Below are positions 8,706 to 26,420 of a stretch of DNA of 26,420 nt, piece after piece. A model generated the notes under the pieces. That model was not told where the DNA came from and did no database searches. It saw nothing but the letters and a program-made list of their open reading frames with translations. The stretch's first letter is position 1. Every line of letters begins with the position of its first letter. The stretch is from a bacterium (GTDB taxonomy: Bacteria; Patescibacteriota; Minisyncoccia; UBA6257; GWB1-50-10). The translations under genes were made by a program, and so were the position numbers. Location: assembly GCA_043723165.1 (NCBI GenBank), contig JAYSOF010000026.1, positions 1 through 26,420 of the forward strand, in the 5' to 3' direction.

Positions 8706-10397
8706 ATGCGAGGCACGAAATCGATAGACGAATCGCTCGCGGAACAACGGCGGGCGGCCGAAGAACGCGACGCCGAACGGCGGGCGGTGAACCTCAAGCT
8801 CCCCTACCTCGACCTCATTTCGGTACGGGTTCCGACAGAGATAGATGCTATGGTTCTCGTGCCAGAAGCTGAGGCACGGAGCGCTAAGCTCTCCCCGCTC
8901 CAGCTCGTCCGAAAAACTATCGTGCTCGCGGTTTTTGACCCACGCCTCCCCGAAACGAAACGGGTTATTGAAAAGCTGAGCGCCACCCACACGGTTGATG
9001 TCCGAATCACATCCCTCGCCGGGCTGAGCCACGCGTGGGACTACTACCAGTACGTGACAGGTGAGACGATAAACATAACCGGGAAGATAGACCTCGATCC
9101 GAAGCGGCTCACGAGCCTGCTCGCCTCGGTCAAAACGCTCGGAGACGTGGAACGCGAGGTAAAAGATTTCAAGAGCCCGCTCACCTCCGAGCTCCTCGAT
9201 ATCGTGCTCGGCTCTGCGCTCGCGCTCCGCGCATCAGACATCCACCTCGAACCGACGGTGGGAGACGCGGTGCTCCGGCTCCGCATCGACGGTACACTCC
9301 ACGACGTGTACCGATCGTTCGGCACCCACGTGTACCACTCAATCGTTACCCGAATCAAGCTCCTCTCGAACCTAAAGCTCAATGTATCTGACCAACCGCA
9401 GGACGGACGGTTCACGTTCGGGGTAGAAGACCGATCGATTGAAGTTCGCACCTCGCTCATCCCATCAGAGTACGGCGAGTCCGTCGTCATGCGCCTCCTC
9501 GATCCACGCTCAATCTCTGTAGAGCTCTCGAATCTCGGCTGGCGTCCAGATGACCTAGCCATCGTAGAGCACGAACTCTCGAAACCAGACGGGTTGATCC
9601 TGAACACCGGTCCGACCGGATCAGGTAAAACGACCACGCTCTACGCGTTCTTGAAGCACGTCACCACCTCGGAGCTCAAGGTTATCACCGTGGAAGACCC
9701 GATCGAGTACCACCTCGCTGGAATTTCACAGACGCAGGTCGATCGGACAGCTGGGTACACATTTGCATCCGGACTCCGATCAATCCTGAGGCAGGATCCT
9801 GATGTGATCCTCGTCGGTGAAATCCGAGACGCAGAGACGGCGGAGATTGCGCTGAACGCTGCCCTAACCGGACACCTCGTTTTTTCAACGCTCCACACAA
9901 ACGACGCGGTGGGCGCAATCCCCCGCCTCATCGAGCTCGGATCGAAACCCCAGACGATCGGACCGGCACTCTCGCTCGTGATCGCCCAACGTCTCGTCCG
10001 GAAGCTCTGCGACCACTGCAAAAAAGCCCGTACGCTCACCGCGGACGAAGGAGCGGGTATCCGAGAGTTTGTGAGTAGGTTGCCGAAGCGCGTCGATCGC
10101 GCGCCATACGAAAAACCCACGCTCTTCGAGCAGGTTGGGTGTTCCCTCTGCGGGGGGATCGGGTACCACGGTCGCACCTCGATATTCGAGCTCTTTTCGG
10201 TGAGTGAAGAGGTTGAGGCAGCCATCTACAGAGACCCGACAGAAATCGAAATGAAATCCTTGGCAAAAAACCAAGGGATGACTACAATGCAAGAAGACGG
10301 AATGCTCAAGGTGATCCGCGGAATCACGGACCGAGGAGAAATTGAGAAACTCACGGGTCCCCTCGAGTGGTTACAAGATAAAAAAATCCCGAACTGA
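8706..10397 (+). CDS. pilB: Type II/IV secretion traffic ATPase, PilB/GspE family
   Basis: ASDIHLEP, LRIDG, PQDGR, Walker A GPTGSGKTT, TVEDPIEY, LRQDPDVILVGEIRD, TGHLVFSTLHTN, Zn motif CDHC...CSLC. Confidence 0.93.
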   Translation: MRGTKSIDESLAEQRRAAEERDAERRAVNLKLPYLDLISVRVPTEIDAMVLVPEAEARSAKLSPLQLVRKTIVLAVFDPRLPETKRVIEKLSATHTVDVRITSLAGLSHAWDYYQYVTGETINITGKIDLDPKRLTSLLASVKTLGDVEREVKDFKSPLTSELLDIVLGSALALRASDIHLEPTVGDAVLRLRIDGTLHDVYRSFGTHVYHSIVTRIKLLSNLKLNVSDQPQDGRFTFGVEDRSIEVRTSLIPSEYGESVVMRLLDPRSISVELSNLGWRPDDLAIVEHELSKPDGLILNTGPTGSGKTTTLYAFLKHVTTSELKVITVEDPIEYHLAGISQTQVDRTAGYTFASGLRSILRQDPDVILVGEIRDAETAEIALNAALTGHLVFSTLHTNDAVGAIPRLIELGSKPQTIGPALSLVIAQRLVRKLCDHCKKARTLTADEGAGIREFVSRLPKRVDRAPYEKPTLFEQVGCSLCGGIGYHGRTSIFELFSVSEEVEAAIYRDPTEIEMKSLAKNQGMTTMQEDGMLKVIRGITDRGEIEKLTGPLEWLQDKKIPN

Positions 10398-23001: not shown

Positions 23002-24171
23002 TCAGGATCCCGCTGGTTCCATAACTACCCCAGACACCGGGGTGATTTTGTACACGAAGCCGTCGGGACGGTTCGTGAAGAAAATAGAATCGTTCGAGTA
23101 GATTGGGTTGTACGCATCGAGTTGGGACGTGAGCGGGAGCGTAGCGGATTCAACCGATGATGTGGTTATCCGGTACAGCCGATCGTTCGTAAAAAACTTT
23201 TCTTGGTAGTAGTCGTCCGGTAGCACGGAGAGTTCGGGCACGGCTCCCCGCGGGGCGAAGCAGTAGGCTTCCGTGCTCGTTGATCCGCTGAAGCACTTTC
23301 CGGGGAGCGTTTCAATCGTCGTTCGGATGAAGTCAGATGTTATGTACACCCTCTGTTCGCCTGCTCGGAACTGGAACAGGGTCTTGTGGTCACCCCCAAG
23401 GTCGAGCGTTAGGCCAGCTTCCGGTGCTGCGGTGATGGCAAAGGAAAGTTTTTTGAGGTCAAAGCTCCAGACCCGAGAGGTGGTGAGTCCAGAAGATCGC
23501 TCGCTGATGATGAGCGTTTGGGGTAGCTGTACCCGTAGCGAGACGCCGCTGAAGGCAAAACCTTTGGTGATGATTCGGTACGGAGCGGTAGGTTTCGTGA
23601 GGTCGATAGCTACGAGGTTCACCCCGCCCTCTTTCGTTTTTACACTCGCAACGATTTCTTGTGATTTAGTTCCCCACGTTGCGTACGAGATATCTCCGGG
23701 GAGCGGTCGCCACGCACGGTCGTTCGTATCAAATATTCCCCAGCTCGCACCCCCGATAGGTCCGAATGCGGCGAGAACCTGGCTGCCCCACGGGCTCACC
23801 TGTGTTTCGCGTACCCCAGCCATCTTCTGTACCGATACCTGCGTGTCGGAATCTTCGCCCACGGTGCTCACGGTTCCATCTGGTGCGATGTAGTAAACTT
23901 TTCCGTTCGGTTCAACCCAGAACGCGGTTACCGGACTGCGGGACACCTTAACGATTGAGACTTCTGTTGGGTTCTCTGCTTCGGGTGTACCAGGCTCACC
24001 ACTCTTGGTCGTTGGGGAAACCGTTCCGGCGCCGGGGAGGGATCCTCCTGTTTGCGGTGTGGTGTTTTCGGGTGCTGTGACCGGTGAGGTGATGCTTGTC
24101 CAGAGCATGTAGCCCGAAACGATGACCGCGAGAGCGCCGAGTGATACGAGGGTAATTTTTTTCCAGGACAT
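23002..24171 (-). CDS. Membrane-anchored protein with P/T/G-rich linker and predicted beta-propeller-like ectodomain
   Basis: Start ATG 24171. N-terminal TM (ITLVSLGALAVIVSGYMLW), low-complexity stalk, repeated short beta-strand blocks (FWVEPNGKVYY, VSPWGSQVL, WSFDLKK, IFFTNRPDGFVYKI). Confidence 0.75.
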   Translation of the reverse strand: MSWKKITLVSLGALAVIVSGYMLWTSITSPVTAPENTTPQTGGSLPGAGTVSPTTKSGEPGTPEAENPTEVSIVKVSRSPVTAFWVEPNGKVYYIAPDGTVSTVGEDSDTQVSVQKMAGVRETQVSPWGSQVLAAFGPIGGASWGIFDTNDRAWRPLPGDISYATWGTKSQEIVASVKTKEGGVNLVAIDLTKPTAPYRIITKGFAFSGVSLRVQLPQTLIISERSSGLTTSRVWSFDLKKLSFAITAAPEAGLTLDLGGDHKTLFQFRAGEQRVYITSDFIRTTIETLPGKCFSGSTSTEAYCFAPRGAVPELSVLPDDYYQEKFFTNDRLYRITTSSVESATLPLTSQLDAYNPIYSNDSIFFTNRPDGFVYKITPVSGVVMEPAGS

Positions 24172-24175
24172 AACC

Positions 24176-25309
24176 TTAGTTCTCGAGGTGTAGGTGCGAT
24201 CCGGTAGCGTACGTGGTTGATTGGGGAACTGGCGTAGTGTCCGGACAGACGCTGTACTCATTTACCACATTGAGCCCGACGTTCGTTGCGGTATCGATCA
24301 TTTTTTGAACCCTCCCACAGTACCCGTCTCCCAACGCATCGATTCGAACCATCTTAACATCAATACACGTACCGCGGATGTGACACGAGTCTGCGTGGTG
24401 AATGGTGGGTGGGAAGGCTTCGGTTACCCGCCAGTCTTTGCGCTCAATCCCCAACGTTTTCAGTGAATCTCGGAACTTAATGAGCTTACTGTAAAAATCA
24501 GGAGCACTCACCTTACAAGCTTCTTTGGGTGCAGATCCCCACTGGCACATCTTAGTTGTCTGAATGTCGAAATCGCTAGTTATGTCCCTCAGGTTCAAGC
24601 CAGCAACGTTGGTTCCCATGCAATCATTGAAGTACTCTCCGCTCTTTATCCCTGCCTGTATTGAGCAGAATGCGTAGGTTCCACCATTGTCCAGCGTTGT
24701 GGGGAGGCAGCGAACGAGCCCAGTTTCGGGGCTAGGTGCGGTTGCTAAGCAGGTCTGCGTTCCGGGAGCAGCGCGTAATGTTGTTGTGCTGTACTTGGTG
24801 TAGAGGAAAGAGCTCGAGGCGGTACACGCGTTCATGGTTTCTTCTGGGCACCCAGGAACACCCGCATAGACAATGGAGTCGTTCGAATGGTAGATCGATG
24901 TGTTTACGATTGCTTTGACGGCCGGATCTTTGAGTTTTATGAGTTCGGGGTTGATTGTGTTGAGGAGAATGTAGGAGCCGAAGAGGAGCCCGATGCCGAT
25001 GAGAGCGCTCGTTATCATCTCTCTCCCCTCGCTCTTCTTATCGATGCTCGACGAGGAAATGGACATGTACACTGATCCGCCCACAATCATTCCGACCGCG
25101 AGAATTCCGGCTATCCCCATACCGAACCGGTACAGGTTTAGGAGGTACTGTGCGATGCTCGAGGTCGCCTCAATGCACGGTCCGAACGTCCCCACCTCTC
25201 CAGGTAAGAGGCAGGGTGGCTTGTAGACGAGGTTAACGTCTGCTGCTAGGGCGTAAGATGCCGTGAGGAGTGCCAATGATACGGTGAGGATGGTGATGAA
25301 GCGTTTCAT
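24176..25309 (-). CDS. CPR VirB2/TrbC-like pilin fused to a Cys-rich linker and a C-terminal Hedgehog/M15-type Zn-metallopeptidase domain
   Basis: Signal peptide MKRFITILTVSLALLTASYALA. Pilin hairpin ILAVGMIVGGSVYM...KKSEGREMITSALIGIGLLFGSYILLNTINP. C-terminal WRVTEAF, SCHIRGTCID (H-x6-D), GSHLH (HxH). Confidence 0.8.
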   Translation of the reverse strand: MKRFITILTVSLALLTASYALAADVNLVYKPPCLLPGEVGTFGPCIEATSSIAQYLLNLYRFGMGIAGILAVGMIVGGSVYMSISSSSIDKKSEGREMITSALIGIGLLFGSYILLNTINPELIKLKDPAVKAIVNTSIYHSNDSIVYAGVPGCPEETMNACTASSSFLYTKYSTTTLRAAPGTQTCLATAPSPETGLVRCLPTTLDNGGTYAFCSIQAGIKSGEYFNDCMGTNVAGLNLRDITSDFDIQTTKMCQWGSAPKEACKVSAPDFYSKLIKFRDSLKTLGIERKDWRVTEAFPPTIHHADSCHIRGTCIDVKMVRIDALGDGYCGRVQKMIDTATNVGLNVVNEYSVCPDTTPVPQSTTYATGSHLHLEN

Positions 25310-25320
25310 GGTGTTCTGCT

Positions 25321-25977
25321 CTAGAGGTTGAGCCACGTTTTAGCGAACTCGAGTGGGTTCGCGAGGTTGTTTACCGCGAGGTCGACGCGGAGCTTACTCC
25401 CAGAGAGTCCACTGTCCGCTCCGATGGTGAGGAGGTTGTCTCCAGCTTTTTCTGATTTCTTTCCGGCGACGCTCCACGAGAAGTTTAGGTCCGAGAGGTC
25501 GGGGGCGTTGAAAAAGTACGGGATTGCCCGGAGGGTTACCTCGGATCCGGTTCCGGATTGGCGTATGACAATTTTAGGATCGACAACCGGTACGCGCGCG
25601 ATGACCTCGTACGAGCCGCCACCAACCGGCTCCACGACCACGCGGACGAAGTGGGAGGTTCCGCTCTGCTTCTGTGATGTGAACGATATATTCTGTAGCC
25701 CTTCGGTCCGCGCGATGACGCTCTCGTCGACCCTCCACGTGATGAGCGCCCTCGAGAGGTCAACGAGCTTCCCGCCGAGAGAGGCAACGATGCTCATGTC
25801 TACGATGCTCCCCGTGCTCGGAAAAACCTTACCGAGGTACGTCGATGGGTACAGGTTCCGAGCTTCCCACGTGACGGCGAGTTTGGTCTGTTCGGTCGGT
25901 GTGGCTGACTGAGCGAAAGCTGCTGATGTTACAGCAGAAGAGATAACAATTCCGAGGATGAGTGCCCGGATGTTCAT
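25321..25977 (-). CDS. Secreted beta-sandwich (Ig-like) protein of the CPR pilin locus
   Basis: Signal peptide ending AAFA-Q. TWEA..YP..YLGK, ITWRVDE, LRAIPYFF, FSWSVAG pattern recalled from Parcubacteria hypotheticals. Start 25977 favoured by TAGAAT 7 nt upstream. Confidence 0.7.
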   Translation of the reverse strand: MNIRALILGIVISSAVTSAAFAQSATPTEQTKLAVTWEARNLYPSTYLGKVFPSTGSIVDMSIVASLGGKLVDLSRALITWRVDESVIARTEGLQNISFTSQKQSGTSHFVRVVVEPVGGGSYEVIARVPVVDPKIVIRQSGTGSEVTLRAIPYFFNAPDLSDLNFSWSVAGKKSEKAGDNLLTIGADSGLSGSKLRVDLAVNNLANPLEFAKTWLNL

Positions 25978-26013
25978 TTGACTCATTCTACAACAATCGC
26001 ACCCCCCCGACTA

Positions 26014-26319
26014 CTATGATGACCGCTGGGCAGCCTCCCGGTTGTGCATGATTGCGCTCACTATGAAAATGACAACCACCGTGGGGATAACGGGTACGAG
26101 GTTTACGACGTACTTTCCGAAACGTTTCGCGCTGATCTTTCCGAGATTGGTCGCACCGTGCGATTTTTGTAGCTGTTCAATCCCCCACGTCGTGAAAGCT
26201 TGGAGCATCGTCGCGGGGACAGCCCCTATGAGGGTTAGGTCTAGCAGGCCAGAGATGAAGTCTACGCCGCCTAAGATGCACCCGAAGACAACCATCTCTG
26301 CGGTTGAGAACGGCTTCAT
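26014..26319 (-). CDS. Small membrane protein (101 aa)
   Basis: Hydrophobic segments at N- and C-terminus (VNLVPVIPTVVVIFIVSAIM). ATG 2 nt after the upstream stop. Confidence 0.7.
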   Translation of the reverse strand: MKPFSTAEMVVFGCILGGVDFISGLLDLTLIGAVPATMLQAFTTWGIEQLQKSHGATNLGKISAKRFGKYVVNLVPVIPTVVVIFIVSAIMHNREAAQRSS

Positions 26320-26321
26320 GG

Positions 26322-26420
26322 CTACTCTTTGGGAACACCCAACCCTTTAATTTCGAGCATCTGTTCAGGGTTTGTGGTGATGATTTGGTCTTCGGTGTAC
26401 GAGGCGATGACTTTCATTGC
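26322..26420 (-). CDS. C-terminal fragment of a probable VirB4-like ATPase (5' part outside window)
   Basis: Manual translation AMKVIASYTEDQIITTNPEQMLEIKGLGVPKE*. The (V/I)ASYTEDQIIT..P motif resembles my recollection of CPR VirB4-like ATPase C-termini; only 32 aa visible. Confidence 0.6.
   Translation of the reverse strand, partial: AMKVIASYTEDQIITTNPEQMLEIKGLGVPKE

Follow-up and report, generated by a model that had tools for sequence, protein, structure and literature searches.

Can a secretion machine carry a cell-wall cutter on one of its own pilins? The question is raised by a gene of a member of the Patescibacteriota (Candidate Phyla Radiation, CPR), on contig JAYSOF010000026.1 of assembly GCA_043723165.1. 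The DNA analysed, 26,420 nucleotides and called the window here, makes up the whole of contig C26 in a 98%-complete genome of 536 kb. The gene occupies positions 24176-25309 on the minus strand and encodes a protein of 377 amino acids (aa) plus stop, P0001, in which an earlier note, made from the letters alone, had seen a type IV secretion system (T4SS) pilin armed with a zinc peptidase. Every feature listed in that note (signal peptide, two helices, eight cysteines and the motifs H310-x6-D317 and H372-x-H374) was located in the open reading frame. The architecture suggests a secretion machine that brings its own cell-wall cutter.

The reading frame ends with a TAA at 24176-24178 and could begin either with a GTG at 25336 or with an ATG at 25309. 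The ATG is the likelier start, because it lies 11 nt past the stop codon of the upstream gene, gives a canonical signal peptide and is the start used in homologues. The GTG is an unlikely one; it falls within the upstream 221-aa gene, whose TAG occupies 25321-25323. Residues are therefore counted from the ATG at 25309; the numbers used in the earlier note equal these plus 9, so that its H319, D326, H381 and H383 are H310, D317, H372 and H374 here.

The fusion protein falls into five parts, all coordinates being those of the minus strand. A Sec signal peptide (aa 1-22/23; 25241-25309), with a hydrophobic segment at aa 3-25 and a model helix at 2-20, is predicted from the AxA rule to be cleaved at ALA|AD, after MKR and the hydrophobic core. 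It is followed, after a short extracytoplasmic segment (aa 24-50; 25160-25240) that contains C33 and C45, the latter invariant in eight full-length homologues, by a VirB2-like pilin hairpin (aa 51-125; 24935-25159) in which two long hydrophobic helices flank a short basic loop, SSSSIDKKSEGRE. Hydropathy analysis accordingly gave three hydrophobic segments, at aa 3-25, 59-85 and 97-120. Then come a flexible spacer (aa 126-149; 24863-24934) that is conserved in neither length nor sequence, a small folded Cys-rich alpha/beta module (aa 150-228; 24626-24862; C154, C162, C187, C201 and C215) that had no match in Pfam, and a Hedgehog/DD-peptidase (LAS, M15-like) domain (aa 229-377; 24179-24625), referred to below as the tail. 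The full-length AlphaFold model had a predicted local distance difference test score (pLDDT) of 83.1, with values below 50 for aa 129-148 and of 82-93 for the Cys-rich module. Eight cysteines lie within residues 154-265 and four further ones in the last domain. Thus the cysteines of the '8-Cys linker' of the earlier note are present, but the region is not a linker: it comprises the disordered spacer (129-148), the folded module and the start of the Hedgehog-like domain at about aa 229. Likewise, the 'disulfide-stabilised arm' is better described, on the model, as a flexible spacer that leads to a folded ectodomain.

The Hedgehog-like domain

When the isolated tail was used as query, nothing relevant was obtained from Pfam (E up to 10), from NCBIfam or, with phmmer, from the PDB, and the match described here was obtained from a family profile only, not from single-sequence searches. 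The same tail was present in 91 of 183 fetched homologues, always downstream of the pilin part and mostly at the extreme C-terminus. An alignment of 51 tails (A2), which are 26-50% identical to that of P0001, revealed six invariant positions, P300, H305, H310, D317, E351 and H374, and eight that were nearly so (T296, E297, P301, G313, C331, G345, N350 and G370). Invariance of these six residues at such low overall identity indicates that the motif is not a chance one.

A search of the PDB with the profile of the 51 tails returned the N-domains of Sonic, Indian and Desert hedgehog with E values of 3e-5 to 2e-3; the top 24 matches were all Hedgehog proteins, and bacterial M15 enzymes appeared only at E>1 (best about 1.4, LdcB/DacB). 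In the profile alignment RVTEAFPPTIHHADSCHIRGTCIDV pairs with a segment of Sonic hedgehog (Shh) and NEY pairs with YES, such that the Hedgehog block RVTE...HH..S.H..G..VD has a counterpart in the tail residue by residue: H305 corresponds to H135 of Shh, H310 to H141, G313 to G144, D317 to D148 and E351 to E177 (HMMER alignment). The codons of this first active-site block were checked and span 24359-24397, with H305 at 24395-24397, H310 at 24380-24382 and D317 at 24359-24361. E351 (24257-24259), in the conserved NEY motif, aligns with the glutamate of Shh YYESK and is the predicted general base. H372 and H374 (24188-24196) lie on the last beta strand (373-376) and are taken as the counterparts of Shh H181 and H183, given that residue 377 of the model and residue 185 of Shh close the structural alignment; H374, three residues from the end of the protein, would then be the third zinc ligand. 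Of the Pfam models that had been proposed for a search, T4SS_pilin matched P0001 at E=1.6e-5, just below its cut-off in the protein scan; HH_signal and Peptidase_M15 gave no match. Across the 51 tails HH_signal matched eight weakly (best E=0.0015, below cut-off), and Peptidase_M15_4, VanY and Peptidase_M15 each matched single tails, none of them reaching the cut-off.

The structural comparison with the N-domain of Shh (ShhN) and zinc DD-peptidases that the earlier note had called for placed ShhN first, followed by LdcB, MepA and VanX. In a VIA-align search with the full-length model, Hedgehog chains filled ranks 1-3 of 48,161, with ShhN at rank 1 (Z 9.3 over 115 residues, model 230-377 against Shh 62-185) and Drosophila Hh at Z 8.7; LdcB (7.2), MepA (7.1, 136 residues), VanX (7.0) and VanXYg (6.9) scored lower. 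Since the alignment runs over 230-377, the Hedgehog-like domain appears from the model to cover about aa 229-377, that is, to extend beyond the last 90 residues. This wide search was needed because Foldseek of the full-length model against the PDB returned helical noise alone. A model of the isolated tail (aa 279-377) had a pLDDT of 90.6, and with it Foldseek ranked Hedgehog first in both the PDB and the Swiss-Prot AlphaFold database (AFDB) libraries, with the M15 peptidase ChiX and a phage L-Ala-D-Glu peptidase among the lower matches. VIA-align Z values for the isolated tail were 5.6 for Hedgehog, 5.0 for the Streptomyces albus Zn DD-peptidase 1lbu, 4.8 for Ply500, 4.6 for LysB4, 4.2 for VanXYg and 4.1 for MepA. 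Together, the full set of zinc-ligand and catalytic residues conserved in 51 tails, the Hedgehog profile matches and the structural matches support the proposal that the C-terminal part has the Hedgehog/DD-peptidase fold, and we regard its assignment to the LAS fold as very likely correct. This LAS/M15-like fold, an antiparallel sheet flanked by helices, belongs to the Pfam clan Peptidase_MD.

The N-domains of Sonic, Indian and Desert hedgehog are thus the nearest relatives of the tail both by sequence profile (E=3e-5) and by structure (Z 9.3). The tail nevertheless stands outside the Hedgehog family proper, because it lies below the cut-off of HH_signal (PF01085), lacks the Ca2+ site and has no Hint autoprocessing domain; unlike Hedgehog, it is fused to a pilin. 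The ligands of the two-Ca2+ site of Hedgehog are E90, E91, D96, E127, D130 and D132 (PMC8052667). Of these only E127 has a match, E297; the tail has P300 and T302, within an invariant TEAxPP motif, in place of D130 and D132, and the alignment begins at or after the Shh segment with E90, E91 and D96, for which no counterparts were sought. A further difference from Hedgehog lies between E351 and the HxH motif, where the tail has some 20 additional residues. It is about 16-23% identical to Hedgehog, in contrast to the bacterial Hh/DD-peptidases described as bacHh (PMC6027127), which are more than 50% identical to Shh and likewise form the C-terminal, extracytoplasmic part of a membrane-anchored protein.

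The fold of the LAS peptidases (MEROPS M15/M74; 1lbu, VanX/VanXY, LdcB, MepA, Ply500 and LysB4) was recovered at Z 4-7. They have in common with the tail the H-x6-D ... H-x-H metal site, the H-x2-G-x-[AC]-x-D spacing of M15 and an extracytoplasmic location. However, the tail has no significant sequence match to them, is smaller and is Cys-rich, and the specificity for a bond cannot be inferred from the likeness. It represents a compact, Ca-site-free bacterial branch of the Hedgehog/DD-peptidase fold, and as such it bears on the question of whether Hedgehog is itself a peptidase (PMC6027127, PMC8052667).

The pilin half and the variation of its tails

The N-terminal part had been read as a VirB2/TrbC-like pilin, and this held up on three counts: a match, close to the cut-off, to Pfam T4SS_pilin (PF18895), a signal peptide with two helices, and a location in a T4SS operon. 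In the protein scan PF18895 covered aa 49-117 (E=1.6e-5) with 25.3 bits, 1.3 bits below the curated cut-off of 26.6 bits, whereas in a six-frame search of the genome the fusion reached 29.1 bits, above the cut-off. Syntenic orthologues scored 27-38.8 bits, and some also matched TrbC/VirB2 (PF04956) weakly. An exhaustive phmmer search with the fusion returned 12,234 representatives, mostly through the pilin part, and the closest named homologues carry the annotation 'pilin [Candidatus Jorgensenbacteria]'. The hairpin helices of the model (52-84 and 89-125) align with the conjugation pilin of Aeropyrum pernix (8dfu_B) at Z 8.7 over 74 of 84 residues, a match that is supportive only, as helical hairpins reach high Z values easily. 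No region of the protein is better conserved than the hairpin, where about 40 positions are invariant among the eight full-length homologues (33-56% overall identity). The positive-inside rule and the signal peptide together suggest that both ends of the mature hairpin lie outside the membrane, and hence that the tail is extracytoplasmic.

The fusion has a signal peptide, a hydrophobic helical hairpin and a match, here close to the cut-off, to PF18895 in common with VirB2/TrbC/TraA pilins, the archaeal Ced pilin (8dfu) and the VirB2-like pilins of CPR bacteria, and the genes of these CPR pilins lie, like that of the fusion, near virB4 and, in Paceibacteria, beside dnaA (PMC10633639, PMC12102498). 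Canonical pilins, however, have about 70-140 aa and no globular domain, whereas the fusion adds a folded ectodomain of about 230 aa with a predicted enzyme. In the orthologous loci L010 and L012 and in six genomes of the same family (L043-L048), as in the window, the genes are arranged as VirB4 - 101 aa - 221 aa - pilin - 389 aa, convergent with jag/yidC/dnaA. On the contigs of the orthologues P0003 and P0010 it can be followed further, as VirB6-like (TrbL_3), 309 aa, PrgI, TraC-like, VirB4, about 100 aa, about 226 aa, pilin fusion and about 392 aa, and there the operon is convergent with jag (R3H), yidC, (rnpA, rpmH), dnaA and dnaN. VirB4 of the orthologous loci was recognised as P-loop_TraG/DUF87/AAA_10. 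The operon is the chromosomal, origin-proximal T4SS described for Paceibacteria, in which VirB2-like pilins are found near virB4 and VirB1 homologues are mostly missing there (PMC12102498). The T4SS of CPR/Patescibacteria has been called "the most exciting newcomer" to the superfamily, and no pilus of this pilin family has yet been visualised (PMC12857230). This T4SS has neither relaxase nor coupling proteins, epibiotic growth cannot do without it, and its VirB2-like pilins are unique among monoderm T4SSs. The requirement of both the T4SS and its pilins for epibiotic growth was established in Southlakia, the one system tested (PMC10633639).

The earlier note had also supposed that the C-terminal domain was a swappable payload. 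This agrees with what was found: the pilin stays at the syntenic site, the tail differs in relatives, and other wall-hydrolase domains occur elsewhere in the family. Of the 401 genomes sampled from the phylum, 392 had pilins with PF18895, as a rule between 3 and 14 of them, whereas none of 14 control genomes had any; the best-scoring of those listed had mostly 110-160 aa. The Hedgehog-like tail was detected in nine of the 401 (E<=1e-5), about 2%, scattered over classes. (These tallies include one unpublished genome, G154, on which no claim depends.) Among 30 relatives, 27 gave a pilin match, which covered only the N-terminal part (to aa 130-200 or so) of reading frames of 240-570 aa. The six genomes of the same family have the pilin at the identical syntenic position, and their identity to the genes of the window's genome is 76-82% for VirB4, 67-73% for DnaA and 44-60% for the pilin N-part. 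Their tail is detectably Hedgehog-like in G406 only and more weakly so in G412 and G402, where a variant reads TGGDH...HY.G.A.D...GGHLH; otherwise it is unrelated or absent. The G406 gene (L026/L048; G406:C1, about 174800-175820) appears as two reading frames, which was found to be due to N-masked bases rather than to a split or frameshift.

A catalogue of C-terminal domains was drawn up for the family. Pfam searches of the 89 family pilins that lack the Hedgehog-like tail gave SLT (5), SLT_3 (2), SLT_2 (1), Peptidase_C39_2 (2), Peptidase_M15_4/VanY (1), YkuD (1), NlpC/P60 (1), CHAP (1) and Calx-beta (1). AFDB clusters that resemble the whole model bear the automatic names of Peptidase M15A-C, M15B, M23 and SLT domain proteins. 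Because family pilins end in such varied wall-hydrolase domains, a wall hydrolase on a T4SS pilin is, as far as sequence matches go, a recurrent modular theme, of which P0001 carries the Hedgehog-like version.

Three further kinds of tail or carrier were seen. A module without a Pfam match, W.YPY[FY] ... [AS].[KR]C[LIV][IV]YAY and usually Cys-ending, occurs on pilin tails of L024-L040 (62 of the 183 proteins), with two copies in G417, and is absent from P0001. A hidden Markov model of it matched none of P0001-P0004, so that aa 150-228 could not be accepted as a diverged copy. The tails of G404, G413 and G405 share a C-terminal domain, TGG.E.GH..HGPG.PVVD ... CNY.E...H.H.FK, that looks metal-binding (L024:2158-2547, plus strand; L033:364-753, minus; L035:2668-3057, plus); as a third LAS-like type it was rejected, both an hhalign comparison with the A2 profile and a profile search of the PDB being empty. 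The Hedgehog-like domain is found, too, on short single-pass membrane anchors that have no pilin part (L013:1165-1767, plus; L014:1237-1767, plus; L016:1450-2142, minus), and in G043 and G251 such an anchor-type gene directly follows the pilin fusion gene as a tandem pair.

Possible function at the cell wall

How might such a protein work? In the explanation that we prefer, a Sec-exported VirB2-type pilin bears a C-terminal extracytoplasmic zinc peptidase on a flexible spacer of about 20 residues. H310, D317 and H374 would hold Zn2+, and E351, with H305 and H372, would activate a water molecule. The fusion would be made together with the chromosomal T4SS (VirB6-like, PrgI, TraC-like and VirB4) and inserted as a membrane hairpin, which the T4SS would either keep at the machine or extract into a pilus, thereby placing the peptidase exactly at the contact of either with a cell wall. 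There it would cut a peptide bond of peptidoglycan, in the stem or the cross-link, as suggested by analogy with all bacterial and phage LAS enzymes and with the domains that replace the tail. Action on the wall of the partner (host) cell at the contact site is favoured, because close relatives with a highly conserved T4SS core do not carry the same payload; variation of the tail alongside a conserved T4SS core and the organism's own wall machinery is a pattern typical of host-interaction surfaces. From the conserved residues the tail is probably catalytically competent. Peptidoglycan is a reasonably likely substrate on the analogy just given, whereas the host wall as its main target is a tentative suggestion, and the explanation as a whole, a pilin with a LAS peptidase at the T4SS that acts preferentially on the host, falls a little short of an even chance.

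Several observations weigh against this explanation. No Pfam or NCBIfam model recognised the tail in the scans made, the Foldseek statistics for the isolated tail were weak (E 0.06-0.24, template modelling score about 0.5) and the top VIA-align Z for the isolated 99-aa model was only 5.6. Position 372, usually a histidine, is N or S in P0003, P0004 and others, and for signalling the corresponding site of Hedgehog has been considered a 'pseudo-active site' (PMC6027127). In many close relatives the pilin of this T4SS locus lacks any recognisable enzyme, and the machine as such can therefore do without the peptidase. The domain can work as an ordinary membrane-tethered ectoenzyme, given its presence on the plain anchors of L013 and L016. 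The genome has at least four tail-less pilins that would make better bulk subunits, in which case the fusion would be a minor, tip or base pilin, and a 25-kDa domain on every VirB2-type subunit would, to judge from the geometry of the F-pilus, be tightly packed.

In other T4SSs, hydrolases with SLT or CHAP domains (VirB1, PrgK, TraG) open the cell's own wall. A similar task could be assigned to the fusion, with the hairpin serving to anchor the peptidase beside the T4SS while the enzyme opens the cell's own peptidoglycan for the channel or pilus. A Mur ligase and a class A penicillin-binding protein encoded in the window indicate that the organism synthesises a wall itself. No other recognisable wall hydrolase was found in the T4SS locus, and SLT and CHAP domains are absent from the 98%-complete genome, in which M23 and NlpC/P60 genes lie on other contigs. 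The spacer is short, at about 20 aa, the peptidase domain is found on simple membrane anchors as well, and several sister pilins carry SLT, the fold of VirB1. The usual lack of VirB1 homologues near virB4 in CPR bacteria (PMC12102498) may even have its explanation in pilin-hydrolase fusions. The T4SS wall hydrolases (VirB1, PrgK, TraG/TcpG and CD419) resemble the tail in being peptidoglycan-type domains encoded inside a T4SS operon, but the tail has the fold of a LAS metallopeptidase, is predicted to cut a peptide rather than a glycan bond and is covalently joined to the pilin; as Pfam found no SLT, CHAP or NlpC catalytic domain in the fusion, the likeness is one of functional analogy only. 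A housekeeping role in assembly should moreover be conserved, since a cell's own wall chemistry changes slowly, whereas the close relatives just mentioned have the same conserved T4SS core and no recognisable enzyme on the pilin. The hairpin also seems too conserved for a mere anchor, its 40 or so invariant positions and 44-69% identity contrasting with 27-37% for neighbouring surface proteins. Action on the cell's own wall is less likely than not, though about as likely as action on the host's.

The peptidase could also be a passenger. C-terminal trimming of T4SS pilins is established, for example in TrbC of RP4, and a cut in the disordered, unconserved spacer (aa 129-148) at pilin maturation would yield a free secreted peptidase and a short pilin equal in size to the tail-less pilins of the genome. 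The homologue alignment, however, shows no conserved cleavage motif in the spacer and no dedicated maturation protease was identified in the operon, which leaves release of this kind improbable. Nor need the domain be an enzyme: its cleft might bind a component of the wall or matrix and turn the pilin into an adhesin. Hedgehog signals without catalysis (PMC6027127), H372 is variable, and parts of the motif are lost in some family members, such as L015 and L018. On the other hand, three metal ligands, a general-base glutamate and H305 that are invariant across 51 diverged sequences are the signature of retained catalysis, and the domains that replace the tail on sister pilins are enzymes; a purely binding role therefore seems very improbable.

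The preferred explanation, of a peptidase carried on the pilin and directed at the host wall, can be extended to the T4SS pilus of CPR bacteria in general. The pilus might be an enzyme-decorated drill, in which interchangeable wall hydrolases (Hedgehog-like/M15, SLT, NlpC/P60, CHAP, M23, YkuD) sit on the pilin subunits in general or on a specialised tip or minor one, and are swapped at a fixed locus to match the peptidoglycan chemotype of the host. We consider this extension doubtful. Were it true, the epibiont would open the wall of its host for attachment or nutrient uptake, and the tail would be a bacterial lineage of the fold behind animal Hedgehog that is still in its ancestral job. The cargo of the CPR T4SS, and its route across two walls, form a question on which pilin-hydrolase fusions give a concrete handle; for host specificity, payload turnover between close relatives at this one locus offers a candidate marker.

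The earlier note could not say whether such a fusion had been described. It was not described in the literature searched, including PMC12102498, a 2025 review of T4SSs and PMC10633639; it is already present in public databases under automatic names, such as 'pilin' or 'Peptidase M15A C-terminal domain-containing protein'. Another kind of CPR pilus, Pam (PMC13278184), was considered and rejected, as it is built from unrelated pilins with an Ig fold and donor-strand exchange.

Neighbouring genes and other pilins

The genes around the fusion lie on the same strand. Upstream are a gene for a 221-aa secreted protein (25321-25986), which was present in eight of eight compared loci and had only Minisyncoccota clusters as look-alikes in the Atlas, and one for a 101-aa membrane protein (26014-26319), which was found in six of the eight and was undetected in L043 and L045. 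Neither protein had a family in Pfam or NCBIfam, and both may be phylum-specific T4SS components. Next to them, at 26325-26420, lies the end of the gene for the VirB4 ATPase, 32 codons long, for which tblastn gave 85% identity with VirB4 of L010 (residues 557-589). The remainder of VirB4 (residues 1-555, 93% identity to that of L010) is at C19:3-1667 on the minus strand, and because the gene is split across the contig break, contigs C26 and C19 abut. Beyond VirB4, C19 continues with TraC-like, PrgI, 309-aa and VirB6-like genes. The look-alikes of the neighbouring genes in the Atlas were from Minisyncoccota (CPR/Patescibacteria).

Downstream, and starting 4 nt after the pilin stop, is a gene for a 389-aa membrane-anchored protein (23002-24171), probably a PD40/TolB-like beta-propeller; its Atlas look-alikes are Minisyncoccota clusters, some with PD40, which serve as a lead only. 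This gene always adjoins the pilin gene, and the order of the two is swapped in G412 and G402.

Three of the tail-less pilins are in tandem at the start of contig C12 (C12:65-1300, minus strand; PF18895, about 120-140 aa). The fourth is a near-duplicate at the end of C19, where a near-identical pilin C-terminus was found (C19:20264-20410, minus strand). The repeat probably broke the assembly, and these pilins are candidates for the major pilins.

Logan contigs of four sediment-metagenome runs also contain the sequence of the fusion, identical and free of variants; these runs may be the source samples and so confirm the assembly only. All runs that carry the sequence are of DNA from sediment metagenome, with no RNA run among them, and no RNA-only search was made.

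Elsewhere in the window, at 8706-10397 on the plus strand, is a gene for a T2SSE/PilB-type ATPase with an MshEN domain, belonging to a type IV pilus system, and machinery of both the type IV pilus and the T4SS is thus encoded near the origin.

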